64,000 nt of DNA from Haliotis cracherodii (Eukaryota): the NCBI RefSeq assembly GCF_022045235.1, contig NW_027266279.1, positions 12,152,001 through 12,216,000 of the forward strand. Direction: 5' to 3'. This document shows positions 14,498 to 57,684 of this stretch, piece after piece. Below the pieces are notes generated by a model, which saw nothing but the letters and a program-made list of their open reading frames with translations, was not told where the DNA came from and searched no databases. Positions within the stretch are counted from its first letter, which is position 1. Every line of letters starts with the position of its first letter. The translations under genes were made by a program, and so were the position numbers.

Positions 14498-14639
14498 TTC
14501 CTGTTTGTTCATTGTTTTTGCAACCATCAAACTTGGGTATATAATTTCTACCTTGGAGAAAGAGCGTTCTTGGAAGCATTACGCAAATGATAATGACGCC
14601 ATTCCTGGTGTTGAGGACTGTTTACGTTACTTAACTTGA

Positions 14640-20100: not shown

Positions 20101-23100
20101 TCGGTGATTCCGTCATTCAGATCGCTAACCCACTCAAAACACTGAACTCAACCCATGCCGCTTCACTCAATATATTTGCTAACACCAAAGAGTTCGCGTT
20201 TTATTTAGTCATGAAAGAATGGAGATAAACATACTGTGTTTTCAATGTAGAGCTAGGTTACCTGTAGATTTAACCGCGCTAAATTTAACATTTGAAACCT
20301 CACGCTGCGTGTTCGGTTCCAAATTTAGCGGGGTTAAATGTACAGGTAACCTAGCTCTACATTGTAAACACAGTATGTTTATCGCCTAATTATATGAGTA
20401 TTATATTTCAATTCTGTAATGAAAATATCGTCCTTCACCTTCGTCACTTTGCTAACCGAACAGGATATGAAGACCATGATGACAGTCATACAGCGTTTTG
20501 TGGTCTTAATGTATGATCGGGCCGGCATCGGTACAACAGTTGATTAGGCACGCAAAGACTTATTCACAAAGAAATCCCACATGGGCAATACATGTACCGT
20601 CCTCCATTGTATTATGGGGCGGTCGGGTAGCTTAGTGGTTAAAGCGTTCGCTCGTCACGCCGAAGACCCGGGTTCGAATCCCGACATGGGTACAATGTGT
20701 GAAGCCCAAATCTGGTTCCCCCGCCGTGATATTGCTGGAATATTGCTAAAAGCGGCGTAAAACCATACTCACTCACTCCATGGTATTATATCATCATTTA
20801 ATTATCATAACACTGTTTGGATACACTCAGTAAACATGGATGAGAGCAGGGATGAGGATTCTGATAAAGTTTCTGCACCAGTCTGGACGAGATTCATCCT
20901 CGATTGTCTGGTGTATATCTCCTCCCATTATAAACAATACCTTGCAGCCTTTTTGGAAAGTGGTGTCGCCATCTTCATCTTTCTGATCAGTGACGTCCTT
21001 CAGAGTGTCTGCCGCACCATGAGTGTAATCTGCTTTGAGTGAGTGAGTGAGTGAGTATGGTTTTACGCCGCTTTTAGCAATATTCCAGCAATATCACGGC
21101 GGGGGACACCAGAAATGGGCTTCACATATTGTACCCATGTCGGGAAACGAACCCGGGTCTTCGGCGTGATGAGCGAACGCTTTAACCACTAGGCTACCCG
21201 ACCGCCCCTAATCTGCTTTGACGATAATTCTAAGCGCCGTGTTATTCAAATAATAGCCAATGTATCAAGAGCATTTTACAGATGAGAGATGCATTACACT
21301 GGACAATCGATATTGAATGAGCGTATCACTGGAATCATTATGTTTCAGGGTTAAATACTGAACCCTCCATTAAAGTCGTCATAGCGAAAAGAGGGAGTAC
21401 CGCTATCCTGCCATGCTCTGTTGCCAGCCAAACGGATTCATATGTGAGTACTTTTGACAGGGCCCCGTCTTCAACAGCCAATACTTGTCGTAAGAAGTCA
21501 CCGTGATTAACGGGATCGGGTGGTCAGGCTTGCTCACTGGTCTAGACGTTGTATGTCCTGTACTGGTCTAGACGTTGTATGTCCTGCACTGGTCTAGACG
21601 TTGTATGTCCTGTACTGATCTAGACGTTGTATGTCCTGCACTGAGCTAGACGTTGTATGTCCTGCACTGGTCTAGACGTTGTATGTCCTGTACTGATCTA
21701 CACGATGTATGTCCTGCACCGAGCTAGACGTTGTATGTCCTGCACTGGTCTAGACGTTGTATGTCCTGCACTGGTCTAGTCGTTGTATGTCCTGTACTGA
21801 TCTACACGATGTATGTCCTGCACTGGTCTAGACGTTGTATGTCCTGTACTGATCTACACGATGTATGTCCTGCACCGAGCTAGACGTTGTATGTCCTGCA
21901 CTGGTCTAGACGTTGTATGTCCTGCACTGGTCTAGACGTTGTATGTCCTGTACTGATCTACACGTTGTATGTCCTGTACTGATCTAGACACCGTATGTCC
22001 TGCACTGAGCTAGACCTCGTATGTCCTGCACTGAGCTAGACGTTGTATGTCCTGCACTGGTCTAGACGGTGTATGTCCTGCACTGGTCTAGACGTTGTAT
22101 GTCCTGCACTGGTCTAGACGTTGTATGTCCTGCACTGGTCTAGACGTTGTATGTCCTGCACTGGTCTAGACGTATGTCCTGCACTGAGCTAGACGTTGTA
22201 TGTCCTGCACTGGTCTAGACGTAATATGTCCTGCACTGGTCTAGACATTGTATGTCCTGCACTGAGCTAGACGTTGTATGTCCTGCACTGGTCTAGACTT
22301 TGTATGTCCTGCACCGAGCTAGACGTTGTATGTCCTGCACAGACCTAGACGTTGTATGTCCTGCACTGAGCTAGACATTGTATGTCCTGCACAGAGCAAG
22401 ACGTTGTATGTCCTACACTGGTCAAGACGTTGTATGTCCTGCACTGAGCAAGACGTTGTATGTCCTGCACTGATCTAGACGTTGTATGTCCTGCACCGAG
22501 CTAGACGTTGTATGTCCTGCACTGAGATAGACGTTGTATGTCCTGCACTGAGATAGACGTTGTATGTCCTGCACCGAGCTAGACGTTGTATGTCCTGCAC
22601 CGAGCTAGACATTGTATATCCTGCACTGGTCTAGACGTTGTATGTCCTGCACTGAGATAGACGTTGTATGTCCTGCACTGAGATAGACGTTGTATGTCCA
22701 GCACTGGTCTAGACGTTGTATGTCCTGCACTGAGCTAGACGTTGTATGTCCTGCACTGAGATAGACATTGTATGTTCTGCACCGAGCTAGACATTGTATG
22801 TCCTGCACTGAGCTTGACGTTGTATGTCCTGTACTGGTCTAGACGGTGTATGTCCTGCACTGAGCTAGACGTTGTATGTCCTGCACTGAGCTAGACATTG
22901 TATGTCCTGCACTGGTCTAGACATTGTATTAAGTGTGTGAGACATTGTCTGTGTCATGAGCTTCTCCATTAACTGTTGACCAACACTGTGCTGTTTTCAA
23001 CGACCATTCTTGTAGTTATTTCAATATGTTTATGTCAAATCTTAGAGAATATCTGCTTGTTATCACTCAGTTGCAGATTGAAAGAATGAATGTATTGCAC

Positions 23101-24418
23101 CTTTAATACATGGTAACGCGTTGTTATGACGTCACGTTGCTATTGACCGCCTCCCAAGCAAACAATGAGAAAAATTGGCGTGAATTTTTCGGCAGAACGT
23201 AAGATTTGTATTATGACATTTTGGAATACTACATTTCACATTCCACGTGGAGACTCTACAGTCAATAAACACAGTGCGGTCCTCTCCATTCCATGACGAC
23301 AAACTTCAACGCTAACTGGCAACAGATTTTACACAGAAAACCCTCCTGGACCAACAACTAAATGCCTGTATTTCGAAATTCAGTGATAATTGAAAGGTGG
23401 GGGAACCTGTCCACTGAGATTAAGATGTGTACAAATTATTCATATTTGTAACCTCGAATTCCTTTCGGCGTTTTGCTAGTATCCGATTATCGTTTTTTCC
23501 GAGTCTATTTTTTAGGGGGAGGCCAAATGTTTCCACTTGAAGTTTTGTCTCTGCAGGGAATAACAGCGACAAAACCCGTTCTATATACATCCTGGGTTAC
23601 AATTCTCATCACAACTTTATCAGGGTTCTGATGACAATTGGTCCTTGGATATGGTCAGCTTCTGATCTGTCGTCGACAGTTTGGATACCCATCGTGTGGA
23701 CAGCGGACGTTGTGTGTGACAGTTAAGGTGGCCTGACCTGAACCAAAACGGATTCCAATAGTGTCGACGATATTGCTGAATTATAGCACGTTTGTCAGCA
23801 TAACTATGCCTAGACGGCATCCAGTTGCCTTCCAGGGTTTCCATCTTTAGGACGACCAGTGCTTGTCCTTACAGTCATCCCCAACGTGCTTTTCATCTCT
23901 TTTTGTATTTCCTTTGGTGACATGCCCTTTATATGCAGGTACATTGTACTCAATCACAGCTCGTTTCTCAGTATTCTCCTTGTTCGCATTTTCACTCAAC
24001 CTTGTCAAATTCTCTTGTTGACAGAAATCAGGTGTTGAAACGTCACACTTCACAAAACAATATCTATCAGGTCAAGAATTTTTAGATTTACCTCGTTCAT
24101 GGTGTGCCACAAATAATATACACATTTCTATCTCTATGGACACATAGTACATGTAGATGGATTGTTATTTTAAATTGCTAAAAATCCAATTGTTCCAATT
24201 TACAGAGATTGTGGAGTTTTAAAGCAACTACACTTTATACCTGGAACCGCTTCTCAAGCTTGGCACTTACATCTGACCGTCGCTTGTCCATCGACAGGGG
24301 CTATAGCAGTGAATGGAATCTGAAGATCCGAGACATCAGAATAAGTGATGATGGGATGTACCTCTGTAGCAACAATGACGGCGACAAGCAAGCTTTGAAG
24401 CTGCTAGTACAACAATGA
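17149..24418 (+). CDS. Secreted coiled-coil + single Ig (V/I-type) domain protein, 3 coding exons: 17149-17806, 21349-21443, 24206-24418 (~321 aa)
   Basis: Signal peptide MATRWKATVLALCVLCCETQLG, heptad-like helical region, Ser/Thr linker. GT-AG junctions join in frame (phase 1, phase 0) to VIAKRGSTAILPCSV...RLWS...EWNLKIRDIRISDDGMYLC, giving the Ig B-strand Cys, C-strand Trp and DxGxYxC. Confidence 0.82.
20222..20387. mobile_element. Foldback/MITE: near-perfect ~65-bp inverted repeat
   Basis: GATAAACATACTGTGTTTTCAATGTAGAGCTAGGTTACCTGTA... pairs with ...TACAGGTAACCTAGCTCTACATTGTAAACACAGTATGTTTATC. Confidence 0.8.
20616..20779 (+). mobile_element. tRNA-derived SINE family A, full length
   Basis: GGGTAGCTTAGTGGTTAAAGCG...GGGTTCGAATCCC head, (ACTC)n tail, TSD-like CCATTGTATTAT/CCATGGTATTAT. 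Confidence 0.88.
21039..21208 (-). mobile_element. tRNA-derived SINE family A, inverted copy
   Basis: Reverse complement of 20616-20779; TSD TAATCTGCTTTGA on both sides. Confidence 0.88.
21536..22928. repeat. 28-bp minisatellite (CACTGGTCTAGACGTTGTATGTCCTG-type) in intron 2 of the Ig gene
   Basis: About 50 tandem units, starting directly after a truncated family-D SINE. Confidence 0.95.
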
Positions 24419-44260: not shown

Positions 44261-44755
44261 AAAATTTTATGGCAGACATGTGGAGGAAATGTGTAAATTT
44301 GACGCATCATGGACAAATAATGATGTCCGATGCAGTTCCTATTTTGACATTTTCCATTGGTTTAAGTAGGGAACATTCATTTTGAGAATGAGGAGTGAAC
44401 AATATTGTAATGCATTATGGAACATACTCAATAGAAATTGTGTTTATACAGTAGCATGTCAAATTTCCATTTCAAGAAAGGGAACTGAAAGTTTAACAAA
44501 GCCAAGGAAAACGACAAATGATTGCAACCATGATAGCACTCACATTGACAATATCAGGTGTTTGTGAAAGTGGACACATAAAAAACTATCAATACTGCAT
44601 GTATTCGCGTAACATCCGGTTCATAAGGTCAAACGTGTAGCTTGTCCACTATAGCATATGTGAATATGAGAGGAATAACATTTCAGAGTAAGTTAGTTAT
44701 TTCCAGATGGATGTTCACATTATTCAGTATTGCTTGGCAACGGTATAAAAATCTA

Positions 44756-45304
44756 AGTAGTTAAGTACTGTGGTATGGAACACCTCAGGATTATGGAACC
44801 ACTCAGGATTATGGAACCGGAAGTGACGTCACATCCTCTGTGACGTCACTTCCGGTCACGTGACCTGCGCAGTGCATGATGGGACTCTGCGCGTGCGCCT
44901 CCAAGATGGCGTCGCTTCCGTTTCCGGTGGCGTGCGCCTCCAAGAGGGCGTGGCTTCCGTGTCCGGTGGCGTGCGCCTCCAAGAGGGGCGTCGCTTCCGT
45001 GTCCGGAGTCGCGCGCCTCCAAGAGGGGCGTCGCTTCCGTGTCCGGAGGCGCGCGCCTCCAAGAGGGGTGGCGCTTCCGTGTCCGGTGGCGCGCGCCTCC
45101 AGGGGGTGGCGGTGGTGGAGGGAGGGAGGGAGGGAGGGAGGGAGGGAGGGTGGTGGTGGTGAAGGGAGGGAGGGAGGGAGGAAAGGAAGGAAAGGAGGAG
45201 GAGACGGGTTCATGGTGTGGGTGGGTGGGTGGGTGGGAGGGTCGTCAAAGCAAAGGAGGAAAGTTGTCTTTCGGGAGAGATGGGTGGCCCTGAAAAGGGC
45301 CGTT
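44756..45304 (+). repeat. Left terminal inverted repeat (549 bp)
   Basis: Reverse complement of 56077-56647; contains TATGGAAC repeats, a 41-bp palindrome, 39-40 bp GC-rich tandem units, (GGGA)n and a histone-type stem-loop. Confidence 0.96.
44816..44856. promoter_or_regulatory. Palindrome of two ETS-CRE composite sites in the left TIR
   Basis: ACCGGAAGTGACGTCACA-TCCTC-TGTGACGTCACTTCCGGT: 18-bp perfect stem, followed by E-box GTCACGTGAC. Confidence 0.75.
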
Positions 45305-45307
45305 TTG
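45264..45307 (-). terminator. Histone-type 3' stem-loop and downstream element (copy 1)
   Basis: Minus strand CAAAAC-GGCCCTTTTCAGGGCC-ACCCA-TCTCTCCCGAAAGACAA; stem-loop 45286-45301, 10 nt after the stop of ORF 45312-45650. Confidence 0.88.
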
Positions 45308-45311
45308 ATAT

Positions 45312-45650
45312 TTACATGCATGTGCACGCCATGGTGCAAAGGCACGGGTGGACTTTCATTTGACGTCTGACAGGACACCTACTGGTGTGCGTTAACCGAC
45401 GCACGTAGGTGTCCTTGAGGATGGTCTTACAGTACACACATTCGAAAGTCCCATCCCGTGCCCTTGTGCCAAGGGCGTACACAGGCAGGCCCCCTTGGCA
45501 TCTGTCGCATTGCCATGCTGGAGACCATGGTGGTGGTGGTGGTGATGCTTCTTTCCACCCGGGCAAAGGTTGTTTCACTGTGGCGATTTCTAAATCCCAG
45601 TTTTCTTTCATGTGGTAGTTGTTGCTGTTGCTGTTGCTGCTGCTCATCAT
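45312..45650 (-). CDS. Small Cys-rich putative zinc-binding protein (112 aa)
   Basis: CDRC...CVYC pair and terminal CLCTMACTC; ATG ~50 nt downstream of the TATAAAA of promoter copy A; stop next to the histone stem-loop. Confidence 0.68.
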   Translation of the reverse strand: MMSSSNSNSNNYHMKENWDLEIATVKQPLPGWKEASPPPPPWSPAWQCDRCQGGLPVYALGTRARDGTFECVYCKTILKDTYVRRLTHTSRCPVRRQMKVHPCLCTMACTCM

Positions 45651-45659
45651 GATGAATCA

Positions 45660-45962
45660 ATTTTACAAGTGACACTGACCCACTCGAATCCACTGTTGTT
45701 TTATAGGAGAGGTACTGACACCCACCCTCCTGGTTGGTTCGCCAGACCGCAGCTCCGATTGGTTCGTTCCGGGGCCTGGTCAGCACCTCGGTTTTCCAAA
45801 ACGGACCGACCCCTGTGTTTCTTTTCCATAGGAAATGGATTTTACCATGGGAGAGAAAGCACAACCCCGGTTCGGCCAATCAGAGCCCCACCTGGTCCGA
45901 GCACCGCTTCTGATTGGTCGACAACCCAGGCTTCGGATTGGTCCCATTTCGATCCGGTTTTT
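45660..45962 (-). promoter_or_regulatory. Repeated multi-CCAAT/TATA promoter module, copy A
   Basis: Homologous to 47332-47630, 52040-52275 and 55030-55300; TATAAAA on the minus strand at 45705-45699. Confidence 0.8.
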
Positions 45963-46503
45963 TCTTCTTGGGTAGCCTTGGTATTTTTTTTTGAGGTAGA
46001 CGGTCGTCTGAATGCTAAAGGAAGGTGGACCTTCATCGGTAGACATGAACGTGGGAATGCCTACGTGATGTACGTGTGTGTCACTCCCATGCCAATCGGA
46101 ATGTCATGTGTGCATGTGTGTGTGTGGGTATGTGTGTATGTCTTCAAACAGACGTTGACGTTGATGTATAGAATAGCGTGTGGTCAGGCAAAACGTAGTG
46201 TCGCGATGTGAACGTCATGTACACGTGGTGTCCTGTGTGTGTGTGTGTGTGTCTTCAAATTAGTATTATTATGATTATTTAAGGATACCGAGGTGTTGAC
46301 ACCCGTGTAAGTCGACAGACGTACTGTGACACGTGTTTTCATGCACACGTGATGTTTGACGTGGTGTACCACGTGTCTCTATTGATCTATTTATATTTAT
46401 ATCTATTTATTTTATTTTTAGACGTGTGCCTCCAAGAGGCCTAGGGGAGGGTGTGGGTTCTTTGTTTTGGATTGTCATTGTTTGGCAAAGCAAAGGTAGA
46501 AAG

Positions 46504-46549
46504 TTGTCTTTTGGGTGAGATGGGTGGCCCTGAAAAGGGCCGTTTTGGG
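46504..46549 (-). terminator. Histone-type 3' stem-loop and downstream element (copy 2)
   Basis: Minus strand CCAAAAC-GGCCCTTTTCAGGGCC-ACCCA-TCTCACCCAAAAGACAA; stem-loop 46526-46541, ~310 nt downstream of the BIR gene stop. Confidence 0.86.
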
Positions 46550-46854
46550 AAAGAAGAAAACTTTTCTGCTGCTGTCCAAGAAGAATGATCATGTCCAAGC
46601 TTATTGACAAGACAAGGATCGTCGAAGGGGTACTTGCTGCCATCTGGGTATGTCATCGGGGTGACCACCGTGACACCACTTGTGGGTCCAACAAAGAAAA
46701 GTTTGTTGGAAACAGGAAGCGGAAACAGATTGAACCATTCACAACAACAACTGTAGACAAACGGGAACTTGAACGGGAACTGGAACGGGAACTTGAACGG
46801 GGAACTGGAACGGGAACTTGAACGGGAACGCAGGACACGAGAAACGTCGTCCTC

Positions 46855-47331
46855 CTAGGCAGCCGGCTCTGCTACGTCATTCGTGTACCTCTGTTTCTCT
46901 TCGCAGAGATAGTGTAGTTGTAGTTGCTTCTGGTGTTTCACCAGCCCGGTTAGCTTGAGGTAATCGCAGTCTGGGGACCACTTGTGATGTGCCGCCCAAG
47001 GATTGTCGTGGGGTGCCCATTGTCTCAGCCGCACACCACATTGGAAACAGCACACACCATCGGCACCCTGAGTGTAGACAAAGCCCGCATGAGCCATCTC
47101 CTCAGCAGTCTGATACATTTGCGTGGGCCACGTCTCAAACGAAGCGAGCCTTCTTTCAAAGCGCAGATAATAGTGCGATGGTGTTTGACTGAGCAGTGAC
47201 ACCGCCTCCTCGGCATGACTCTTACTCCAACATGCACGAGTATCTGTACCCTCCATTCCCACATCTTCGCTACGCGTCGTCGTCGTACCACTCCTCTTTG
47301 TTTCAGCCATTCTTGATTTTATCACATCCAT
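46855..47331 (-). CDS. Single-BIR-domain inhibitor-of-apoptosis-like protein 1 (158 aa)
   Basis: RRLASFETWP...MAHAGFVY...DGVCCFQCGVRLRQW...DNPWAAHHKWSPDCDYL: complete BIR with CxxC...H...C zinc ligands. Confidence 0.93.
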   Translation of the reverse strand: MDVIKSRMAETKRSGTTTTRSEDVGMEGTDTRACWSKSHAEEAVSLLSQTPSHYYLRFERRLASFETWPTQMYQTAEEMAHAGFVYTQGADGVCCFQCGVRLRQWAPHDNPWAAHHKWSPDCDYLKLTGLVKHQKQLQLHYLCEEKQRYTNDVAEPAA

Positions 47332-47630
47332 TTTACAAGTGACACTGACCCATTCGAATCCACTCTTGTTTTATGGGGGAAGAACCGGATCGAAATGGGG
47401 TGCTTCCTGGTTGGTCCAAAACGCAACGCACCGATTGGTTCGTTTCGGGGCCTGGCCTGCACCTCGGTTTTCCAAAACGACCCGACCCCTGTGTTTCTTT
47501 TCCATAGGAAATGGATTTTACCATGGGAGAGAAAGCACAACTCGGGTCGGGTGCTGCCTTCTGATTGGTCGAGGCTGTCTTCTGATTGGTCGACAATCCA
47601 GGCTTCGGATTGGTCCGATTTCGATCCTGT
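47332..47630 (-). promoter_or_regulatory. Promoter module copy B, between the divergent BIR1 and pPolB genes
   Basis: Four ATTGG boxes, CATAAAA at 47375-47369, and the same 5' leader (GTGGATTCGA.TGGGTCAGTGTCACTTGTAAAA) as copy A. Confidence 0.8.
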
Positions 47631-47708
47631 TTTGGGGAAGGGTTGTCCATCCATCAGACGTTCAGACCCTCTTAGAGTACAGGCGTTCATCAGACACACA
47701 TCGTTATC

Positions 47709-50700
47709 ATGACGAGCAACCAAAGTACGCCCTATCGTTTGGAGAGGAAAGATACCACCCGCTCCAGACGGTTAAGAACTGCTAATCATACCTATCGTTT
47801 GACTTTCAACCCAGACTACTTGGACACCGTACCACCGGAACGCGTCCCCCTGGAACTGCCAGCTTTATTTGACAGGGTGATCGATGACTTTTATGAACAG
47901 ATGTCAGGTCAGAAGGGAGATCGTATTGGTCTAGGTATCGATCATCCCGCTTTGAACACCCCCATACGGATTCCCTTTCGACGTTTTGAAGATCTCCATG
48001 GGCCAGATATTTTGCAGGCCGTGGAAAAAGTCCAACAGTCCAACAAAGACCTGAACATCGATGACACCATGGATGTGACTTTAGTACACGTCGCAGATCC
48101 CGACAGGCTAGGATCGGGCAGTGGTGCTCCCCGGGTGAAAAACGTGATTGGACTCGAAGCTTTTTTAACACGCAAAAGGTGCATCGTACGGATCAAGAAC
48201 GAAGATCAATCCTGTTTGGCACGGGCCCTGGTGGTGGCACAGCATTATGCCCACAAACCCCATCCTTTGACCCCAGCATGGAAAGCCCAGTTAGTGAGAC
48301 TGATGAGAACGAATCGCGTCGACGTTCAAGGCCTACGGGCACGGGCCTTGTTTCGACGCCTTGGCCTGCCTGAAGGTCCCTGTCGGGGGCTGGACGACCT
48401 CGCACGCGTGGGACGGGCCTTGACCCACCTGCATTATCAACTGAAAGTCTACAGTCAAGAGGTGGGTCAGAGACTGTTGTACAAGTGTGATGAGGCTCCA
48501 CCTCACGCCACGGTGCTGCATCTATACCATCATGATCAGCACTACGATGTCATCACTTCCATGTCCGCTTTTTACGGGTCTGACCATTACTGCGAACGTT
48601 GCGACAAACGTTACGACCATCCCGAAAAACATCCCTGCACCAAGGAATACCGCTGTCACCGCTGCTTCTACTCTAGCTATTGTGGACCCCAGGAAGAGCT
48701 CGGGATCCCTTGCTTGACATGTCAAGGTTGGTTCCCCAATCCAACGTGTTACACCCGACATCTCCAGTCACCGTCAGAGGGAAAACCCAGCGCCTGTCAA
48801 TCGATTCACAGGTGCCCGAACTGTTTTCAGCTGGTCCGCGTCTTGGAGACCCCCATGGTTCACCACGAGTGCTTCGACGAAGAACATCCCTGCTTGGTGT
48901 GCCGAGAACCCATGACCCCAGACCATCGCTGTTACATGACGCCTCTCCGTGAAGAAAACGAGGAGGGGGAGGAGGGGGAGGAGGGGGAGGGGGAGGGGGG
49001 AGAGGAAACGGAGAAGGAGGGGGAAGAGGAACAACATCACGTACGAGACGACGTCCAATACGTCTTCTACGATTTTGAATGCATGCAAGACACGGGGGAA
49101 CACATTCCAAATTTGTGCGTGGTGCAACTAGGATGTGGACGATGCATCAGTGAAGTGAGCAAGAACTTGTGCGAACACTGCCCATGGAGAGAAGAAGGGT
49201 ATGGTCCCAGCCGTGAGATCGTGTTTCGAGGGCCCACCACGCGACATGATGTGTGTGTGTGGTTGACCACGTTGTGTGAAATACCCAAGAAGAAGAAGCC
49301 CAACCCGGAGGAAGAGGAGGACAGCACACGCAAGGGCACAACAGCCCCCCTGGGGAAAAAAAGAAAACGGGATGGCACCCCCTCAAGAAAGGACGCTACC
49401 AAACGTCAACGGCATGCATCACCCCAGCAGGAGGCGGAGGAGACGGAAGAGGTGGAGGAGGTGGAAGAGGTCATGGAAGTGGAGAAAACAAAGAAGCCAA
49501 AGAACAAGAACACCTCCTGCCATACAGTCCCGAAGGAGGATCGCATTTATGTGATGGCCCACAATGCACGATCCTATGATTTACACTTAATCCTGAAGGG
49601 CCTGTCCCCCCTCCTGGTGACGCTCCCCACCAAGATTCGACATGGCCAACACATTTTGCAGATGACCCTGGGACGGCTGTGTTTCGAAGACAGCTTAAAT
49701 TTCATCCCTTACCCCCTGAAAGCCTTTCCCAAGAGCTTTGGGCTGAAAGAAATGAAGAAAGGGTACTTTCCACACTTTTTCAATACGAGAGTCAACCAGA
49801 CCTACAGAGGTCCCTATCCACCAGCCGTCACGTACGATCCCGATGGCATGTCTCCCGCGGAACGCTCAGCCTTCCTCCAGTGGCATACCCAAAAAGTGCA
49901 AGAAGGAGCCTTGTTCGACTTACAAGAAGAACTTTTAGCTTACTGCCAGAGCGATGTGGACATTTTGAGACGGGGATGCGCCGACTTCCGACAGAACGCC
50001 ATCCACTCGGTGGGCATGGATCCCTTTGTGGAAGTGATGACAGCTGCTGCGTTCACCATGAAATCCTTCCGAAAACACGACCTGAAACCCAATACCATCG
50101 CCATTCTTCCACCTCAAGGCTACCAACCCAAGAGAAACTATTCCCAGGCCTGTATGCACTGGCTCCACTCTCTGATGGAAAGGGACCCCCATCTGCACCT
50201 CCAGCACGCCAGGAATGGCGGTGAAAAAGAGTTCACCTGTGGAGAGGGTCAACATCGGTACAGCGTGGATGGGTACGATCCAGCGACAGGCACCGTCTAC
50301 GAATTCCTGGGCTGTTTCTGGCATGGGTGCAACACCTGTCACAAGACCCGACGTGGAGAACCGCATCCCGTCCTGGGCACGTCGTTGGGAGCCCGTTACA
50401 CCGACACCCACTACCGCTTGAGTCTCTTGAGTCAACACCCTGAGGTGAAACGGGTCGTCGCCCTGTGGGAGCACGAATTTACGAAAATGCAACGGGAGGA
50501 CTCCGCTCTACGTGCTTTCTTGCAGGGACCCCACTGTCGTCACGTCCCCGGGCCACTCAACCCTCGCGACGCCTTCTATGGAGGACGCACCAATGCCACG
50601 CGATTATGCTACGAAGCCCAAGAAGGTGAAACCATCAAGTACATCGATATTTGTTCCCTTTATCCCTACATTTGTAAGACCGGAGCGTTTCCCACGGGAC

Positions 50701-51971
50701 ACCCGACCCTTCTCCATCAACCCCCTGTGGACACGTTGTTTGAACTGAAAGGCCTGATCCAATGCCGTGTCCTACCCCCGAAACGACTCTACCATCCGCT
50801 ACTGCCTTACAGATTGGGCGGCAAACTGCTCTGTCCTTTGTGCCGTACGTGTGCCGATACCCGGTCAGACTCCCCCTGCGAGCACACGGACGAAGAGAGG
50901 TCATGGGTGGGGACGTACGCCACCGTAGAACTCCAGGAAGCCGTGAAGAAGTATGACTACCGGGTGCTTCAGATCTACGACGTTTGGCATTTTGACACCT
51001 TTGCACAGCATGACCCCGACACCCAGCAAGTGGGACTCTTTGACACTTACATCGATCGACATTTCAAGGAGAAGCTCGAAGCCAGCGGATACCCCGAAGG
51101 ATGTACGGATCACGACGCTTACATCCAGGAGATCTACGACAAAGAAGGCATTCGGTTGGACAAGGACCGCATCGAAAAAAATCCAGGACGCCGCACGATT
51201 GCCAAGATGCAACTGAATTCGCTCTGGGGCAAGTTTGGGCAACGGGTAGACTACAGTCAGAACGTCTATATGAACGATCCTGCACAGTACTTTGCCTTGT
51301 GGAGGGATGACCGCAATACCATCGAGGATGTGACCGTTGTCAACGAACACATGGTGGATGTGACCTATACCCAGCGGAAAGAATTCCAAACCCCTCATTC
51401 TCATTTCAATGTCGCCATCGCTGCTTGGGTCACCGCCCAAGCACGTCTCAAGCTGTACGAGACCCTTGCCCTGGTGGGCCGCAGGGTCTTGTACTTTGAC
51501 ACGGACAGCGTCATTTACATTCATCGACCCCACGACGCGAATCCAGAGCTGGGTCATTCGTTGGGTGAGTTTACGGATGAACTGGACGGAAACACCATCA
51601 AGACGTTTGTGTCAGGAGGTCCCAAAAACTATGGCTATGAGTTAATGAACCCCAGACCCGATGGAACGCGCACGACCTGCAAAGTGCGAGGGTTCACTTT
51701 GAATTACCGAAACCAACGCCATCTCAACTTTGACACCATGAAAGGACTGATACTGGGACAACGGTCTGGGAAAGAGGAGGAAGAGAAAATCAGTTTGGAT
51801 TACCCTCATCAGATCATTCGAAAAGGACCTCGGCACGAAAACGCACTCGTGACCCGCCCCACCCGAAAAGACTATCGTACCGTGTACGACAAGCGACGTG
51901 TGGTCTACGACGACACCACAGGCCTACCTGTAGACACGCTACCCTTTGGGTACAGAGACGACTTTCTATAA
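47709..51971 (+). CDS. polB: Protein-primed family B DNA polymerase (Polinton pPolB), 1420 aa
   Basis: ExoI VFYDFEC, ExoII AHNARSYD, ExoIII YCQSDVDIL, FYGGRT, motif A YIDICSLYP, motif B KMQLNSLWGKFGQ, motif C YFDTDS, GPKNY, KVRGF; uninterrupted ORF. Confidence 0.97.
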   Translation: MTSNQSTPYRLERKDTTRSRRLRTANHTYRLTFNPDYLDTVPPERVPLELPALFDRVIDDFYEQMSGQKGDRIGLGIDHPALNTPIRIPFRRFEDLHGPDILQAVEKVQQSNKDLNIDDTMDVTLVHVADPDRLGSGSGAPRVKNVIGLEAFLTRKRCIVRIKNEDQSCLARALVVAQHYAHKPHPLTPAWKAQLVRLMRTNRVDVQGLRARALFRRLGLPEGPCRGLDDLARVGRALTHLHYQLKVYSQEVGQRLLYKCDEAPPHATVLHLYHHDQHYDVITSMSAFYGSDHYCERCDKRYDHPEKHPCTKEYRCHRCFYSSYCGPQEELGIPCLTCQGWFPNPTCYTRHLQSPSEGKPSACQSIHRCPNCFQLVRVLETPMVHHECFDEEHPCLVCREPMTPDHRCYMTPLREENEEGEEGEEGEGEGGEETEKEGEEEQHHVRDDVQYVFYDFECMQDTGEHIPNLCVVQLGCGRCISEVSKNLCEHCPWREEGYGPSREIVFRGPTTRHDVCVWLTTLCEIPKKKKPNPEEEEDSTRKGTTAPLGKKRKRDGTPSRKDATKRQRHASPQQEAEETEEVEEVEEVMEVEKTKKPKNKNTSCHTVPKEDRIYVMAHNARSYDLHLILKGLSPLLVTLPTKIRHGQHILQMTLGRLCFEDSLNFIPYPLKAFPKSFGLKEMKKGYFPHFFNTRVNQTYRGPYPPAVTYDPDGMSPAERSAFLQWHTQKVQEGALFDLQEELLAYCQSDVDILRRGCADFRQNAIHSVGMDPFVEVMTAAAFTMKSFRKHDLKPNTIAILPPQGYQPKRNYSQACMHWLHSLMERDPHLHLQHARNGGEKEFTCGEGQHRYSVDGYDPATGTVYEFLGCFWHGCNTCHKTRRGEPHPVLGTSLGARYTDTHYRLSLLSQHPEVKRVVALWEHEFTKMQREDSALRAFLQGPHCRHVPGPLNPRDAFYGGRTNATRLCYEAQEGETIKYIDICSLYPYICKTGAFPTGHPTLLHQPPVDTLFELKGLIQCRVLPPKRLYHPLLPYRLGGKLLCPLCRTCADTRSDSPCEHTDEERSWVGTYATVELQEAVKKYDYRVLQIYDVWHFDTFAQHDPDTQQVGLFDTYIDRHFKEKLEASGYPEGCTDHDAYIQEIYDKEGIRLDKDRIEKNPGRRTIAKMQLNSLWGKFGQRVDYSQNVYMNDPAQYFALWRDDRNTIEDVTVVNEHMVDVTYTQRKEFQTPHSHFNVAIAAWVTAQARLKLYETLALVGRRVLYFDTDSVIYIHRPHDANPELGHSLGEFTDELDGNTIKTFVSGGPKNYGYELMNPRPDGTRTTCKVRGFTLNYRNQRHLNFDTMKGLILGQRSGKEEEEKISLDYPHQIIRKGPRHENALVTRPTRKDYRTVYDKRRVVYDDTTGLPVDTLPFGYRDDFL

Positions 51972-52039
51972 CTTTTTTTTTTGCATGACAAGGGGATCGA
52001 AACTGAATCGACATGAACCCCTTACAGAAAAAAAAAAAA

Positions 52040-52275
52040 AAAAACGGATCGAAATCGGACCAATCCGAAGCCTGGGTTGTCGACCAATCAGAGACCGTGC
52101 TCGAGCCATGGTGGGCTCTGATTGGTCGAACCGAGGTTGTGCTTTCTCTCTCACGCTACAAGCCTAACCCTATGGAAAAGAAACACAAGGGTCGGTCCAG
52201 TTTGGAAAAATGGAGACTCAGACCAGACACCGGAACGGACCAATCAGAAAGCAGGACCTCCGTGGCTTTTAATAC
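52040..52275 (+). promoter_or_regulatory. Promoter module copy C (most diverged)
   Basis: GGATCGAAATCGGACCAATCCGAAGCCTGGGTTGTCGACCAATCAG... shared with the other copies; TTTTAATA in the TATA position; upstream of the gene at 52481. Confidence 0.75.
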
Positions 52276-52480
52276 GCCCGATGCTCTCCGGTCATCACTT
52301 TTCACTGAACCGACCAAGCAACCACATCGCCCCCCTCTGATTGATGTTCCTCACGTTGTGTTGGTTGTTGGCGTTTTATCTGGAAGAAACACGTGTTTGG
52401 AGAGAGTACCATCAAGTGTTGACGCACCTCCGTGAAGACTTGAAAAGAAACAACAACGAACAGAACATCCGGACAACATC

Positions 52481-53565
52481 ATGTCGAAACGGTTGAATGA
52501 CAAGACACGAAGCGACATGAGTGGCCAAGGAAGCAGTGGAGATGGGAACGGTGACATGACTGCTGAACTGTGGGGTGAAGTGTACGACTTGCTGTGTTTA
52601 AAGATGAAGACCGACGACGCGTACGCCAAGTTACGTGCGAAGGGCGACAACCTGATGTGCGAACAGATACGTTCAAAGATGAGGAAGCTGACTGAACCCG
52701 AGAAAGGCACATCGAAGAAGACGATAAAGAAGATCCAGAAGAAAAAGACAAGCAAGCCCACAGTCGTTGTGATCCCCACAGCAGCAGCAACACCCACCAC
52801 CACCACCACCACATCAGCAACAGCAACAACGGCTGCAGCGACCACAGACATCGAAACGATGGGGACATCCTTTTTGAAACCTGCAACGCCTGCAAAAAGA
52901 CGATCACGGAAGAAATTATCTCTGAAGATCTCTCCTCAAGAACAGCTGTAAGTACCCTTGCTCTTCTTTGTCTCAGTCATTCTTGATGTGATTCATATTC
53001 ATGACCTATTCCTATGATAAATGGACTCTGTCCTATGATTGACAGGACCCCTGATGTCAGTTCAGCCCAGGCCGTGCTAGAACAGTGGTGGGAACAAACC
53101 CCTCGGGAGCCCACCTATTCACCGAATGCCCCTGCTGTGACGATGGCGACGGGTGACCGTGAGGATCATGAAGCGCTCAAGCTGGCCACTCTCCCTTCCA
53201 TGGATCTGGACACGCTCCCCCTGCTTGAGGCTTCTTGGTCACCAACATCCCCGGAAGATGTTCATGTCTACTCCTCAGGTACGCCCCTGGTTTGCGACGA
53301 TAATGAAGATGATGATGATGTGGATGACAACGACGTTGACCTGGATCCTTATGGAGAAGCTCAACTCACTCCCCTACAACGCGGATGTCGTATTTGCCGA
53401 CACAACAACATGTTAAGATACATCAGTTGCAACAGCGGGCAAGTGATGTGTCATACCTGTGGTCTGGAGCTCATAGACTGTACTTGTAGTATGTTGACCT
53501 ATGACCGCATAATGACACATGATGACATGCCTATCACATCTGCTGAGGATCACATCTTATGGTGA
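52481..53565 (+). CDS. Spliced ~328-aa protein with LxCxD, acidic tract and C4 zinc finger (E1A/E7-like layout); exons 52481-52947 and 53046-53565
   Basis: Donor CT|GTAAGT at 52948 and acceptor TTGACAG|G at 53045 join the two ORFs in frame; C-terminal LVCDDNEDDDDVDD...GCRICRH...MCHTC; AATAAA at ~54005. Confidence 0.72.
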
Positions 53566-54303
53566 TCCTCCTCTTCACTCGAAGAACTTGTCAACACGTA
53601 TGCTGCAACCGTGATCAAGTGATGTGTCATGTCTGTTTCAGGGAGACCATAGACTGTACGTGTTGAACGGATGGACCTCTCACAGGGTTGAGGGAGGACC
53701 ACCTCTTATGGGCTTGAAGATGGAAGAGGAAAACGTTGTCGCGTTATTGTTGTTGTTGTAGGGACATGCAAAGCACTCCCTCCTCCATTGACTTTTCGTA
53801 TTTCCGTTGTATCTGGTTGTGATTGGTTTTTTTTCATGATTAAACAGTGATTGATTGAACTGACTCTTTGTGTCTTGATTGATCTCAACTCCAATAGAGT
53901 GCCGAACCGAGGGTAGAGGTTGAGTTGAGATGTCGTTGACGTTGTCTGTCCGTCTGTCTGTCTGTGCATCTGTCATGTCAGTGCACACCCAAGTGTAAAA
54001 TTAAAATAAAAAATAGATAAAAGAGAAAGGCCATGCTTGAAAGATCAGCTGCCTGGTGTCGGTCATTCCAGTACGCATCGATCCCCACACCCCCTCCCCG
54101 TGTACCATGTCATGTCATGGATCGTGTCACGAATCATGCCGTGTGTCCGTCAACCCAAACACAGGATGACGTCACGTGATGAGGTGAAGGAGGTGGAGGA
54201 GGTGGAAGCTAAGGTCATGACCTTCCGTGGAAGGGAGTAGGGTGGAGAGTTTCATAAAAGCAGGCGAACCCTCAGACCTTCTTTCAGTGAAGTCACCGTC
54301 ATC

Positions 54304-54816
54304 ATGGAGCAAAGACGTTCTATGAATGCCATGTCATCCTCCCGAGATGTCGTCACCGATTCCGAGTGGGTGTCTGAAAAGGCGAGAGAACAAGAAGCGA
54401 GAAAACATTCCCTCTTTAGGGACGACACGTGGCGACTCAGTGACATTCTGGAGGGACCTTTTCCTTCTTACACCCTGTGTCATCCTTCTCATCCCCACTA
54501 TGATTCATTTCAAGAACGTCTGAGATCTTTTAAAACGTGGCCTCAACAGATGACCCAGACCCCGTATGACATGGCCATGGCTGGCTATTTCTATCCAGGA
54601 CAAGGTGATTGTGTGACCTGTTATTGCTGCGGTGTGGCACTCCGCCAATGGGAAGCCACAGACCAACCCTGGAAAGAACATCTGAAGCACGCCAAAGTCC
54701 CCTGCGAATACTTGTGTGTGTTTTGTCCTGATGGAGAAGTGAACGAAAAATACAGACGTTTGGTGTCCCAAGAAGCACGGAAGAGAAGAGTCGAGTGTCT
54801 TGTTCACCCCAAGTGA
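54304..54816 (+). CDS. Single-BIR-domain inhibitor-of-apoptosis-like protein 2 (170 aa)
   Basis: ERLRSFKTWP...MAMAGYFY...DCVTCYCCGVALRQWEATDQPWKEHLKHAKVPCEYL; CATAAAA ~50 nt upstream and TGACGTCACGTGA at ~54167. Confidence 0.93.
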   Translation: MEQRRSMNAMSSSRDVVTDSEWVSEKAREQEARKHSLFRDDTWRLSDILEGPFPSYTLCHPSHPHYDSFQERLRSFKTWPQQMTQTPYDMAMAGYFYPGQGDCVTCYCCGVALRQWEATDQPWKEHLKHAKVPCEYLCVFCPDGEVNEKYRRLVSQEARKRRVECLVHPK

Positions 54817-55029
54817 CAACGTTTCTTTTTTCAAAGTGTACAGACGTTCATACCCCCAGTGTTCACAAAAGTCACAGGGACGGTCCCCCCTCATCCTGTG
54901 ACTTTTTGTTTTGTGGTGTTGGTTCATGTGAGCGAGGGGATTAAATTTTTTTTAAAAACTCATAGTGGTGTTCTGTGGTCTGTAGGATGAAGAAAAACAA
55001 AACAGGATCGAAATGCACACCCCGATAAA

Positions 55030-55300
55030 AAAAACCGGATCGAAATTGGACCAATCCGAAGCCTGGGTTGTCGACCAATCAGAGACCGTGCTCGGGTCAT
55101 GCGGGGCTCTGAATGGTCGAACCGGGGTTGTGCTTTCTCTCCCATGGTAAAATCCATTTCCTATGGAAAAGAAACACAGGGGTCGGTCCGTTTTGGAAAA
55201 CCGAGGTGCAGACCAGGCCCCGAAACGAACCAATCGGGGGCGCGGCCTGGGGAACCAATCAGGAGGGTGGGTGTCAGTGACTCTCCTATAAAAACAAAAC
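55030..55300 (+). promoter_or_regulatory. Promoter module copy D
   Basis: CCAAT at 55051, 55075, 55230, 55255 and TATAAAA at 55287; upstream of the zinc-knuckle ORF. Confidence 0.82.
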
Positions 55301-55342
55301 AAGAGCGAAGCCACTCACACACACACACACACACTGCATTCT

Positions 55343-55945
55343 ATGAAACCCATCATGCCAGCTCGATACAGTTGTATGAAGTGCCAGACCGACAGTCACA
55401 GTTACCTGTACTGCCCTGAAGTGACATGCCTCGAGTGTGGCACTCAAGGTCACCGTCACTATGTCTGTCCGAAGATGAACAGTCAAGAGAAGCAGGAGAA
55501 TCGGAACCTGGACCGCTGTTACAACTGTGAAGCCCTGGGTCATTTCGCTGCAGATTGCCCAGAACCCAGTCGAAAGAAGACTCCCCATCGCCTGGACCAC
55601 TGTTACAACTGTCAAGCCCTGGGTCATTTCGCTGCAGATTGCCCAGAACCCAGTCGAAAGAAAACGTCAGCAACACCGTCCACGTCGACACCCGTGGCAC
55701 CCGTGACACCCGTGACACCCGTGACACAAGTGGTTCATCTCATCGAAGACGTGCACGTCGATGTCCTCGACCTAAAAGAATACCTCGCACAACTCCGGGC
55801 GGACATCACACCTCTTGTAGAGAAAAGAAAACGGGTCAGAAGCCTCTCAAGAAAGCACGCTTCAAAGCGCCGACGACACCTTCAGTCCGAGGATGAGATG
55901 GAAGTAGAGGGTGAAGAAGAGAGATCATCTGAACAAAGTGACTAA
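55343..55945 (+). CDS. Four-CCHC zinc-knuckle nucleic-acid-binding protein (200 aa)
   Basis: CMKCQTDSHSYLYC, CLECGTQGHRHYVC, CYNCEALGHFAADC, CYNCQALGHFAADC (all C-x2-C-x4-H-x4-C); basic NLS-like and acidic tail. Confidence 0.88.
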   Translation: MKPIMPARYSCMKCQTDSHSYLYCPEVTCLECGTQGHRHYVCPKMNSQEKQENRNLDRCYNCEALGHFAADCPEPSRKKTPHRLDHCYNCQALGHFAADCPEPSRKKTSATPSTSTPVAPVTPVTPVTQVVHLIEDVHVDVLDLKEYLAQLRADITPLVEKRKRVRSLSRKHASKRRRHLQSEDEMEVEGEEERSSEQSD

Positions 55946-56074
55946 CGCATGGGGCCATGCTACCCCACTGTTTTTTTACCAGTGTCCCATCGTTTGCAGT
56001 TTTTCCAGTGTTCCAGTGTTCCAGTGTTCCTGACGTTTCCTGTCGTTTCCAGTTTCCAGTTTCCAGTTTGTTTT

Positions 56075-56117
56075 CCAACGGCCCTTTTCAGGGCCACCCA
56101 TCTCTCCCGAAAGACAA
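56075..56117 (+). terminator. Histone-type 3' stem-loop and downstream element (copy 3)
   Basis: CCAAC-GGCCCTTTTCAGGGCC-ACCCA-TCTCTCCCGAAAGACAA; stem-loop 56080-56095, ~135 nt after the zinc-knuckle stop. Confidence 0.88.
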
Positions 56118-56647
56118 CTTTCCTCCTTTGCTTTGACGACCCTCCCACCCACACCATGAACCCGTCTCCTCCTCCTTTCCTCCCTCCCTCCCTCCCTCAA
56201 TTCACCACCACCACCCTCCCTCCCTCCCTCCCTCCCTCCCTCCCTCCACCACCGCCACCCCCTGGAGGCGCGCGCCACCGGACACGGAAGCGCCACCCCT
56301 CTTGGAGGCGCGCACCTCCGGACACGGAAGCGACGCCCCTCTTGGAGGCGCGCGCCTCCGGACACGGAAGCGACGCCCCTCTTGGAGGCGCACGCCACCG
56401 GACACGGAAGCCACGCCCTCTTGGAGGCGCACGCCACCGGACACGGAAGCCACGCCCTCTTGGAGGCGCACGCCACCGGAAACGGAAGCGACGCCATCTT
56501 GGAGGCGCACGCGCAGAGTCCCATCATGCACTGCGCAGGTCACGTGACCGGAAGTGACGTCACAGAGGATGTGACGTCACTTCCGGTTCCATAATCCTGA
56601 GTGGTTCCATAATCCTGAGGTGTTCCATACCACAGTACTTAACTACT
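56077..56647 (-). repeat. Right terminal inverted repeat (571 bp)
   Basis: Reverse complement of the left TIR with one extra 39-bp unit and small indels in the (GGGA)/(GGGT) tracts. Confidence 0.96.
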
Positions 56648-56846
56648 AATCTACACCCAAACGTCGCTATTAAATTATAAGAAAGCCGTTGTTATCGGTA
56701 AACGGTATCTACTTTAGATTTGTAAAGACTAAAGGACAGGAGGAAAACGCTAACATGCACTGACCGAGGGGCCTTCTTCAAGTCCGAACGCTTCGGGAGT
56801 CACTGTCGCCTCGTTGATCACCCCCGTCGCCCTGTCCGTGCAGCCC

Positions 56847-57684
56847 CCGCTTGACCAGTCCAGATGCCTGCCTGGTGATCGCTCTACCGCTTGACCAGTC
56901 CAGATGCCTGCCTGGTGATCTCCCTACCGCTTGACCAGTCCAGATGCCTGCCTGGTGATCTCCCTACCGCTTGACCAGTCCAGATGCCTGCCTGGTGATC
57001 TCTCTACCGCTTGACCAGTCCAGATGCCTGCCTGGTGATCTCCCTACCGCTTGACCAGTCCAGATGCCTGCCTGGTGATCTCTCTACCGCTTGACCAGTC
57101 CAGATGCCTGCCTGGTGATCTCCCTACCGCTTGACCAGTCCAGATGCCTGCCTGGTGATCTCTCTACCGCTTGACCAGTCCAGATGCCTGCCTGGTGATC
57201 TCCCTACCGCTTGACCAGTCCAGATGCCTGCCTGGTGATCTCTCTACCGCTTGACCAGTCCAGATGCCTGCCTGGTGATCTCTCTACCGCTTGACCAGTC
57301 CAGATGCCTGCCTGGTGATCTCTCTACCGCTTGACCAGTCCAGATGCCTGCCTGGTGATCTCTCTACCGCTTGACCAGTCCAGATGCCTGCCTGGTGATC
57401 TCCCTACCGCTTGACCAGTCCAGATGCCTGCCTGGCGATCTCTCTACCGCTTGACCAGTCCAGATGCCTGCCTGGCGATCTCCCTACCGCTTGACCAGTC
57501 CAGATGCCTGTCTGGTGATCTCTCTACCGCTTGACCAGTCCAGATGCCTGCCTGGTGATCTCTCTACCGCTTGACCAGTCCAGATGCCTGTCTGGTGATC
57601 TCCCTACCGCTTGACCAGTCCAGATGCCTGCCTGGTGATCTCTCTACCGCTTGACCAGTCCAGATGCCTGCCTGGTGATCTCCC
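56847..57684. repeat. 40-bp minisatellite (CCGCTTGACCAGTCCAGATGCCTGCCTGGTGATCTCYCTA)
   Basis: About 21 almost identical units. Confidence 0.96.

Follow-up and report, generated by a model that had tools for sequence, protein, structure and literature searches.

Histone-type 3′-end signals behind non-histone genes of a Polinton in the abalone Haliotis cracherodii and in other Polinton lineages

A 64,000-nucleotide stretch of the Haliotis cracherodii genome (the window) contains a Polinton/Maverick copy in which three non-histone genes are followed by the 3′ signal that replication-dependent histone genes carry in metazoans, i.e., a hairpin, an ACCCA tail and a purine-rich downstream element. 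The sequence, orientation, spacing and copy number of this cassette are directly established, as is the fact that it turns up again behind unrelated genes and in further Polinton lineages. The presence of a histone-type hairpin and downstream signal on Polinton genes suggests that their messages are likely cut and timed by the host histone pathway, and on these sequence features we favour, with some confidence, the view that Polintons borrow SLBP/U7 3′-end formation for accessory genes.

The copy spans 44756..56647 (11,892 bp, unstranded, termini AGTAG...CTACT) and is flanked by the target-site duplication AATCTA at 44750..44755 (+) and 56648..56653 (+). Its unstranded terminal inverted repeats (TIRs), at 44756..45304 and 56077..56647, are 88% alike, and their inner ends are formed by stem-loop 1 and stem-loop 3, respectively, each with its downstream element. 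The hairpin of the Cys-rich gene lies within a TIR, which can be homogenised. A 6-bp target-site duplication is a Polinton trait; this hallmark, the TIRs and a PF03175-type DNA polymerase B (PolB) support the sequence-only reading of a Polinton-like element, and other copies in the genome likewise possess TIRs and a target-site duplication. Among the ORFs of the window copy, Pfam detects no rve integrase, packaging ATPase, adenain-like protease or capsid protein, and the copy is classed as capsid-less and non-autonomous. Copy L107/L108 contains an integrase and a packaging ATPase, which may belong to a nested insert, and related families contain capsid-like and protease-like ORFs. Relative to adintoviruses with PF03175-type (Alpha) PolB (PMC8502044), the window element shares PolB, TIRs, the 6-bp target duplication and inhibitor-of-apoptosis (IAP) homologues, but is without integrase, ATPase, protease and capsid; an OTU-like N-terminal domain of PolB and IAP homologues are named as an adintovirus feature and as accessory genes in sections 3.1 and 3.2 of that paper, respectively.

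The 16-mer GGCCCTTTTCAGGGCC occurs at exactly 45286..45301 (-), 46526..46541 (-) and 56080..56095 (+), as had been read from the letters alone. Allowing up to three mismatches adds no further match in the window, and shuffled controls hold 0.18 matches on average, reaching three in 0 of 100. While the count of three exact copies stands, they represent just two independent placements in the window, since stem-loops 1 and 3 form the inner end of one TIR each. Each copy is in sense orientation past the stop codon of an ORF, in keeping with the earlier claim: stem-loop 1 is 10 nt past the Cys-rich ORF (ACCCA at 45281-45285), the internal stem-loop 2 is 313 nt past BIR1 (ACCCA at 46521-46525), and stem-loop 3 is 134 nt past the zinc-knuckle ORF (ACCCA at 56096-56100). 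The corresponding purine-rich elements are GAAAGA (45267..45272, -), AAAAGA (46507..46512, -) and GAAAGA (56109..56114, +), which begin 8 nt past ACCCA, at nt 14 counted from the stem, rather than the roughly 9-10 nt first proposed. All three hairpins score above the gathering threshold of Rfam Histone3 (RF00032; 35.6-36.8 bits vs 34), upholding their identification as metazoan histone-type 3′ ends with hairpin, ACCCA and purine element. They are predicted to fold into a 6-bp stem with a 4-nt loop (z -2.7 to -2.8) and are accompanied by A/C-rich flanks and an ACCCA-like cleavage tail. The UUUC loop keeps U at positions 1 and 3, the positions described as contacted by SLBP in PMC4604434, and the same hairpin with ACCC appears as the wild-type competitor for human SLBP in PMC1635294. 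About 110 nt downstream of stem-loop 2, two overlapping AATAAA hexamers (46416 and 46411; 46406..46416, -) mark a possible second, polyadenylated BIR1 end; within the element, neither AATAAA nor ATTAAA occurs downstream of the Cys-rich or zinc-knuckle hairpins.

The genes bearing these ends are the Cys-rich ORF (112 aa; 45312..45650, -; without a Pfam match, with 150 related loci genome-wide), BIR1, a single-BIR IAP-like ORF (158 aa; 46855..47331, -; PF00653, E 1e-22), and the zinc-knuckle ORF (200 aa; 55343..55945, +; PF00098, E 2e-12). In the window copy, no hairpin lies behind the protein-primed-type PolB (1420 aa; 47709..51971, +; PF03175, E 4e-35), ORF156 (52481..52951, +; no Pfam match over cut-off), ORF183 (53014..53565, +; LVCDD, an acidic run and CxxC pairs, AATAAA at 54005) or the single-BIR ORF BIR2 (170 aa; 54304..54816, +; PF00653, E 2e-20, ATTAAA at 54940), whereas at locus L014 a stem-loop is present behind BIR2. 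No histone ORF is found among the ORFs of the element, as previously noted. A repeated CCAAT/TATA promoter module precedes the Cys-rich ORF (45656..45963, -), BIR1 (47326..47633, -), ORF156 (52032..52248, +) and the zinc-knuckle ORF (55029..55297, +).

Measured against the replication-dependent histone 3′ end (RF00032, SLBP, U7 snRNP) and the genes that carry it, the element likewise displays a 6-bp stem, UUUC loop, ACCCA and a purine element at host spacing, together with intronless ORFs and CCAAT/TATA promoters; it differs in that its ORFs are non-histone and reside in mobile DNA, and its 3′ UTRs of 134 and 313 nt are long. In the promoter module of the Cys-rich ORF, the proximal part can be aligned in colinear order with the promoter and 5′ UTR of host H3; GATCGAAA, a word in common with the H2A/H2B promoter, did not reach significance. 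The host H1 array terminates in the identical 16-mer (47 nt, 83%, E 3e-6), and one host H1 variant (L314) ends in a 21-mer identical to that of the element, plus GAAAGAAC. The purine element of the Polinton begins at nt 14, compared with nt 13 in the four host core histones and nt 14 in H1 (host range 13-15); the comparison with host downstream elements proposed in the sequence-only reading thus places it at host spacing. At the DNA level, sister-family locus L021 has a match to the host gene for H3 (85%, E 5e-13; 84% and E 7e-7 for the start region), and its family has TIR and promoter pieces in common with the window element at 80-85%. Because the hairpin equals that of host H1 and the sister family keeps a decayed H3 gene, the 3′ signal was likely captured from host histone genes, with the decayed H3 gene as a plausible source of the cassette.

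Exact copies of the 16-mer number 319 in the whole genome, and the cassette stands behind at least eight ORF types: Cys, BIR1, BIR2, zinc knuckle, a serpin remnant (PF00079), an H3-derived ORF, an 87-aa orphan and SET, the protein of the last having no homologue at E 0.001. ORF-less derivatives (L124) retain promoter and hairpin at both ends. Among 40 diverged Cys copies, selected by protein match, 29 keep the hairpin at three or fewer mismatches, another seven retain a decayed hairpin or the downstream element, and four have lost the hairpin alone. Conservation over 25 scored Cys copies is 0.96 for ACCCA and 0.97 for GAAAGA vs 0.61 for third codon positions; the spacer (0.96) and the following 20 nt (0.86) are also conserved. 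Of the 21 changes seen in the stems of old copies, 14 disrupt a base pair, and the internal BIR1 hairpin shows no excess conservation (0.90, vs 0.83 for third positions and 0.90 for the UTR; eight rows, one a false match). In the window and in 7/7 other true copies, a poly(A) hexamer is found downstream of the BIR1 hairpin, at a distance of 110-153 nt. Synonymous sites are about 39% diverged between lineages, yet the hairpin is fully identical to that of host H1.

Related signals are found in other Polintons. Capsid-type copies of the same PolB clade (PolB 51-54% identical) carry, in 3/3 cases, a different but still paired hairpin after the BIR (IAP) gene, with the purine element at spacing; these hairpins were detected by Rfam at an E-value threshold, a regex scan having missed them. 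The hairpin of loci L305 and L308, with A as its third loop nucleotide and a score of 24-25 bits, below the Rfam cut-off, is the last feature before the TIR and is followed by AATAAA after about 50 nt. A third hairpin sequence occurs eight times in 4 of 91 public loci (three distinct elements, likely from coral records), always on the sense strand, vs 0-1 in shuffles, and lies behind kinase and orphan genes. In L366 and L355, AATAAA either overlaps the purine element or comes after it; L366 has a PLA2-like gene and, like the genome relatives, an integrase, packaging ATPase, protease and capsid-like ORF. Across 13 chosen ends, 78/78 stem cells are paired and two-sided changes are seen at four of the six pairs, and a model based on six host histone ends (R1) placed the hairpins of L366, L359 and L360 at the top, at E values of only 0.07-0.6. 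The hairpin was absent from 14 of 15 metagenome contigs of at least 10 kb and from a distant full Polinton of the abalone genome, pattern scans of viral contigs gave 0 matches, and a PolB scan with a single protein gave 0 loci. One L346 hairpin, which falls within the PolB ORF, was dropped, as were two from L365/L369, which failed a second scan. Absence or random orientation in relatives, which the sequence-only reading had named as speaking against it, is not what we observed: the motif is sense-oriented in many copies, in other families and in other records.

A gene for SLBP is present in the host genome, its PF15247 match spanning two exons (E 8e-12). An Rfam search did not find U7 snRNA in the host, and a pattern combining an Sm-site motif with the complement of the downstream element gave five matches vs nine in the control, none convincing; U7 homology searches fail outside four known groups (PMC5054213). 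In our preferred reading, SLBP and the U7 snRNP of the host would bind element transcripts, and U7/CPSF73 cleavage just after ACCCA would yield non-polyadenylated mRNAs from the Cys-rich, IAP-like and zinc-knuckle accessory genes. SLBP binding, this cleavage, a missing poly(A) tail and restriction to S phase or the oocyte are all inferred from sequence. Anti-apoptotic and other host-manipulating proteins could thereby be made in an S-phase or oocyte burst followed by fast decay, at the time when host replication factors and histone-type translation are at hand, and the two outward-pointing genes would be sharply terminated before the terminal repeats. BIR1 may have a dual end, hairpin or poly(A), like human H2A.X, and the polymerase and the spliced central gene would use other kinds of end. 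Hybrid histone genes with stem-loop plus poly(A) resemble BIR1 and the L305/L308 BIR genes, which likewise combine a hairpin with a downstream AATAAA; however, the known examples, human H2A.X (both ends described in PMC7807067) and the Mytilus H1 orphons (hybrid ends, as cited in PMC6210712), are host histone genes.

An unlikely alternative is that the SLBP-bound hairpin acts as a translation or stability element on messages polyadenylated further on. The AATAAA signals 110-153 nt past the BIR1 hairpin, about 50 nt past that of L305/L308 and overlapping the purine element in L366/L355 would fit it, as would the dual ends of H2A.X (PMC7807067) and the fact that some assembled contigs extend past the hairpins (eight runs, all contigs, RNA type guessed). 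However, the Cys and zinc-knuckle hairpins have no AATAAA or ATTAAA after them within the element, and the purine element, at histone spacing, is conserved as much as the hairpin, which argues against a hairpin-only role because SLBP binding alone would not need it. U7-directed cleavage might instead serve as a mere strong terminator that shields terminal repeats and flanks from RNA polymerase II, with cell-cycle timing a side effect. We regard this as decidedly unlikely: two of the three hairpins do point outward at the inner TIR border, the ORF-less L124 keeps promoter and hairpin at both ends and the L305/L308 hairpin comes last before the TIR, but hairpins behind BIR1, serpin, kinase and orphan genes are internal, far from the termini, an ordinary poly(A) site would do as terminator, and the CCAAT/TATA promoters, resembling that of H3, suggest control of a histone-like kind.

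It is improbable, too, that the cassette is an inert relic of a captured histone gene, spread by duplication of promoter/UTR blocks and TIR homogenisation. The decayed H3 gene in the sister family, the plainly duplicated promoter and UTR blocks, the null conservation test for the BIR1 hairpin, decay that ignores pairing in old copies and the 4/40 Cys copies missing the hairpin alone are all compatible with such a history. Yet a relic would sit poorly with complete identity to the host H1 hairpin despite about 39% synonymous divergence, with three hairpin sequences and compensated stems in separate PolB lineages, and with hairpins that always lie on the sense strand past a stop. That the palindrome acts on DNA, serving replication, resolution or protein binding close to the TIR, its likeness to a histone end being incidental, is highly improbable; the hairpin is present in both TIRs, but it lies about 530 bp from the termini, is accompanied by ACCCA and a purine element in a strand-specific arrangement with the spacing of the host, agrees with host H1 and is also found in internal positions behind genes.

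According to PMC4604434, no cellular mRNAs other than those of histones are known to lack poly(A), and no non-histone SLBP target was found in human cells. Our search for literature on histone-type 3′ ends in Polintons found no paper, and 'stem-loop' has no occurrence in the main text of the adintovirus paper (PMC8502044). If borrowing of the SLBP/U7 pathway is real, virus-like elements using the signal would break the histone-only status of non-poly(A) messages, DNA parasites would have a route to couple expression to host S phase or germ line, and poly(A) RNA-seq would under-report the activity of such elements. More tentatively, animal Polintons/adintoviruses may have captured the histone cassette (CCAAT promoter plus SLBP/U7 end) repeatedly, in different phyla, expressing host-manipulating genes (IAPs, a serpin, a kinase and an H3-derived ORF) as S-phase- or oocyte-gated non-polyadenylated mRNAs; in these elements the histone pathway might then have its first viral clients, which poly(A) sequencing would under-detect and from which non-histone SLBP targets, the SET-domain gene for example, might be seeded into host genomes. 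The conserved downstream element would also predict the 5′ end of the mollusc U7 snRNA that homology does not find.

Two further observations come from assembled contigs. One contig stops at 45278 and another, from a different study, at 45279, both beside the predicted cut at 45281; we rejected them as evidence for a 3′ end because a 31-letter assembly graph would branch there, 30 nt into sequence common to all hairpin copies. In ORF183, a GT..AG joint at about 53279-53641 is seen in 4/4 runs, the RNA type being guessed.

The three 16-mers reported in the sequence-only reading lie within a single Polinton element (44756-56647), which starts with AGTAG, is flanked on both sides by AATCTA, and carries terminal inverted repeats (TIRs) of ~550-570 bp with 88% identity. 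The 16-mer is present at 45286-45301(-), 46526-46541(-) and 56080-56095(+), the window has no further match when up to three mismatches are allowed, and none of 100 shuffles gives three matches; the first and third copies mark the inner ends of the TIRs. All three adopt the canonical hairpin fold and exceed the cut-off of the Rfam Histone3 model, the scan which that reading had proposed, and an E-value scan of the whole element found no fourth hairpin. As had been claimed, each is located 3' of a stop codon on the same strand, 10 nt behind the Cys-rich ORF, 313 nt behind BIR1 and 134 nt behind the zinc-knuckle ORF, respectively. The element encodes a PF03175 polymerase (PolB), whose nearest named relatives are Haliotis proteins, two single-BIR proteins, a zinc-knuckle protein and three ORFs that have no Pfam hit above the cut-off, and contains four repeats of a CCAAT/TATA promoter block. 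It lacks ORFs for integrase, ATPase, protease and capsid and is therefore a non-autonomous Polinton.

PolB, ORF156/183 and BIR2 have no hairpin; the ORF183 region is followed by AATAAA and contains a GT..AG joint seen in 4/4 runs (assembled contigs of guessed RNA type). The element thus has two kinds of 3' signal, of which the histone type serves the outer, intronless accessory genes. ORF183 (53014-53641) contains LVCDD (MVCDD in some copies), an acidic run and CxxC pairs, loosely resembling the Rb-binding "Oncoid" layout in the available text of PMC8502044 but without a canonical LxCxE; its LVCDD/CxxC part would be spliced out by the GT..AG joint.

In the abalone genome, the 21-mer including ACCCA occurs 319 times without mismatch, and its reversed control never. 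Of 30 loci examined among 100 listed matches, none has an intact histone ORF among its two nearest upstream ORFs. PolB is present in 10 of the 11 neighbourhoods inspected, with the hairpins on the sense strand behind the same genes. Variant hairpin patterns occur at 25 and 18 places, a few overlapping the earlier matches, and follow BIR, Cys and zinc-knuckle relatives, an 87-aa orphan, a serpin remnant (PF00079), an H3-derived ORF and a SET-domain ORF (PF00856). The last, at L145:6892-7850, is an intronless ORF of ~300 aa with a CCAAT/TATA promoter and a histone-type hairpin 14 nt past its stop; it is intact on three contigs (also at L130 and L183) and broken in a 2.7-kb tandem array (L176-L182), and two copies have >4 kb of downstream DNA in common; no TIR was seen, and database searches gave no homologue at E 0.001. 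The family of the window element looks recently active, since 25 of 46 rows in a PolB search have a stop-free open frame of at least 1348 aa, 16 further copies match the window at 98.9-99.6% identity across 2.5 kb, and distinct 6-bp target duplications flank other copies. One family copy has integrase and ATPase ORFs, possibly in a nested insert. These ORFs, at L107/L108 (G000:C1:41919256-41924196), are flanked by a 903-bp, 99% inverted duplication, and the segment could represent either a helper module or a nested element.

Histone-type ends recur in other Polintons. In three copies from two families, with PolB 51-54% identical and with capsid-like, protease-like, integrase and ATPase ORFs, a sub-threshold Histone3 match (24-28 bits, E 0.001-0.02) lies right behind the BIR gene; their hairpins, GGTCCT-TATA-AGGACC and GGTTCC-TTAT-GGAACC, are each followed by an A/C-rich tail and a purine element. 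A more distant full Polinton of the abalone genome has a BIR gene with AATAAA only. Among 91 public loci (80 metagenome loci, the best 80 of 529, and 11 viral loci), four contain a total of eight hairpins of the type GGCTCT-TTTA-GGAGCC, where shuffles give 0-1; L359 and L360 are the same element at 99.5%, leaving three distinct elements. Seven of the eight lie 10-304 nt behind a same-strand stop, after a protein kinase and orphan ORFs, and the remaining one behind a second copy of this 3' end; half (4/8) exceed the Rfam cut-off, and 14 of 15 contigs of at least 10 kb have no hairpin. We infer a coral host for one of these elements (L366), because the only named relatives of its capsid-like protein (2 of 120 rows, 51-54%) are from a coral. 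A quick PolB tree (60 segments, contigs of at least 6 kb) places the hairpin-bearing rows from abalone in a clade of 7 rows (support 99), separate from a 23-row clade (95) holding the other hairpin-bearing rows, which may point to separate captures. Among 13 ends picked by hand, every stem cell is paired and 4/6 pairs show two-sided changes, a descriptive result since the rows were selected as hairpins. tRNA genes are found at L366:4844-5365 (Trp, His, Val), L355:245-426 (Ala, Met) and L362:5604-5677 (His), adjoining hairpin-bearing genes in L366 and L355. The hairpin-ended kinase at L366:2860-3567, which Pfam assigns only as a protein kinase, presumably resembles the oocyte kinase Mos.

The four core histones of the host end in GGTCCT-TTTC-AGGACC, and the 3' end of the host H1 array carries the exact 16-mer of the element. 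Of five further, dispersed H1 genes, one has the exact 21-mer at its 3' end and four have no hairpin in the 150 nt inspected. The former, a divergent Arg/Lys-rich H1 variant (L314:~1000-1640), provides the closest host match to the element cassette. Comparison of the downstream element with host histone genes, as proposed earlier, shows host-like spacing, the purine element starting, counted from the stem, at nt 14 in the Polinton and nt 13-15 in host genes; many element copies have RAAAGA-ACG/ATG-CTT, as in host H3 and H2A. Colinear alignments of the promoter and 5' UTR of host H3 with the promoters of Cys and BIR1 have scores reached by 1 and 4 of 4000 shuffles and by 2 of 778 host-DNA windows; this evidence is moderate, because the Cys and BIR1 promoters are paralogues of each other and the comparison ran over 50 pairs. 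Locus L021, which has the hairpin at its end, matches the host H3 gene in DNA over two stretches, the start region (84%, E 7e-7) and the part coding for the tail (85%, E 5e-13), and the L021 family has TIR and promoter pieces in common with the window element. Taken together, the cassette likely derives from captured histone gene parts, i.e., an H3 promoter and an H1-type end. In this sister family (L021:841-1560; L140:1865-4330), hairpins terminate both a serpin remnant and the decayed H3 gene, whose tail region is duplicated and whose frame is altered.

In the known pathway, the hairpin is recognised by SLBP and the downstream element by pairing with U7, and CPSF73 cleaves the RNA between the two (available parts of PMC1635294 and PMC5011920), and a hairpin identical to that of the element serves as the wild-type competitor for human SLBP (PMC1635294, same part). 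Given this biochemistry, the accessory transcripts would probably be bound by SLBP and cut via U7/CPSF73 into non-polyadenylated mRNAs, timed to S phase or stored in oocytes, so that anti-apoptotic and other host-directed proteins would be made when the element replicates. The host genome contains an SLBP gene; Rfam and pattern searches of the genome did not find U7, and the accessible text of PMC5054213 leads one to expect such homology searches to fail here. Dual ends with hairpin and poly(A) are treated in PMC6210712 and PMC7807067, as far as their available text goes, and it is unlikely that the hairpin is protein-bound on mRNAs that are still polyadenylated, AATAAA being noted in the window element about 110 nt past the BIR1 hairpin. 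Somewhat less probable is a hairpin acting as a terminator only.

Conservation bears on whether the cassette is an inert relic, a reading we rank lower again. From 150 Cys gene places found by protein hit, 40 diverged places with C-terminal coverage were chosen, ignoring the hairpin. The hairpin lies within 200 nt (at most three mismatches) in 25 and at 222-309 nt in four more; of the others, three have a decayed hairpin, four have lost the hairpin and kept the downstream element, and four are truncated. Compared with the window, the 25 copies have an identity of 0.96 in ACCCA, 0.96 in the spacer and 0.97 in GAAAGA, as against 0.61 for third codon positions and 0.67 from stop to stem; that of the hairpin, 0.94, is inflated by the mismatch filter. 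Against selection, however, the Cys hairpin sits in the TIR and 14 of 21 stem changes disrupt a pair, and the internal BIR1 hairpin shows no excess conservation (20 regions, 12 BIR hits, 8 scored, one false). That the palindrome works as a DNA-level site would fit its place at the inner TIR ends, less so the internal BIR1 copy, and is very improbable. Five old copies (L265, L273, L292, L294, L422) have the hairpin alone deleted and the downstream element left, possibly through instability of the palindrome or through selection by the host once the element had inserted.

Histone-type ends in this Polinton are thus real, recurrent and built from two known systems, and apparently undescribed, their function being predicted from sequence. 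The literature covered, mainly titles and abstract starts, has nothing on Polintons with histone stem-loops; Repbase reports and subscription papers may mention them. In their available parts, PMC8502044 (adintoviruses) names IAP accessory genes without the term "stem-loop", a 2026 preprint (10.64898/2026.10.14.759114) reports no SLBP from viral genomes and describes a scan of sequence 3' of histone genes, and PMC4604434 reports no SLBP target outside histones in human cells.

Elsewhere in the window, a tandem array with a 40-bp unit (56850-57680) lies ~200 bp right of the element, and others are found at 21395-23400 (26-bp unit), 14600-15700 (36-bp) and 2515-3480 (39-bp). tRNA-like heads at 14349-14407 and 20621-20692 probably belong to a SINE family repeated through the window.
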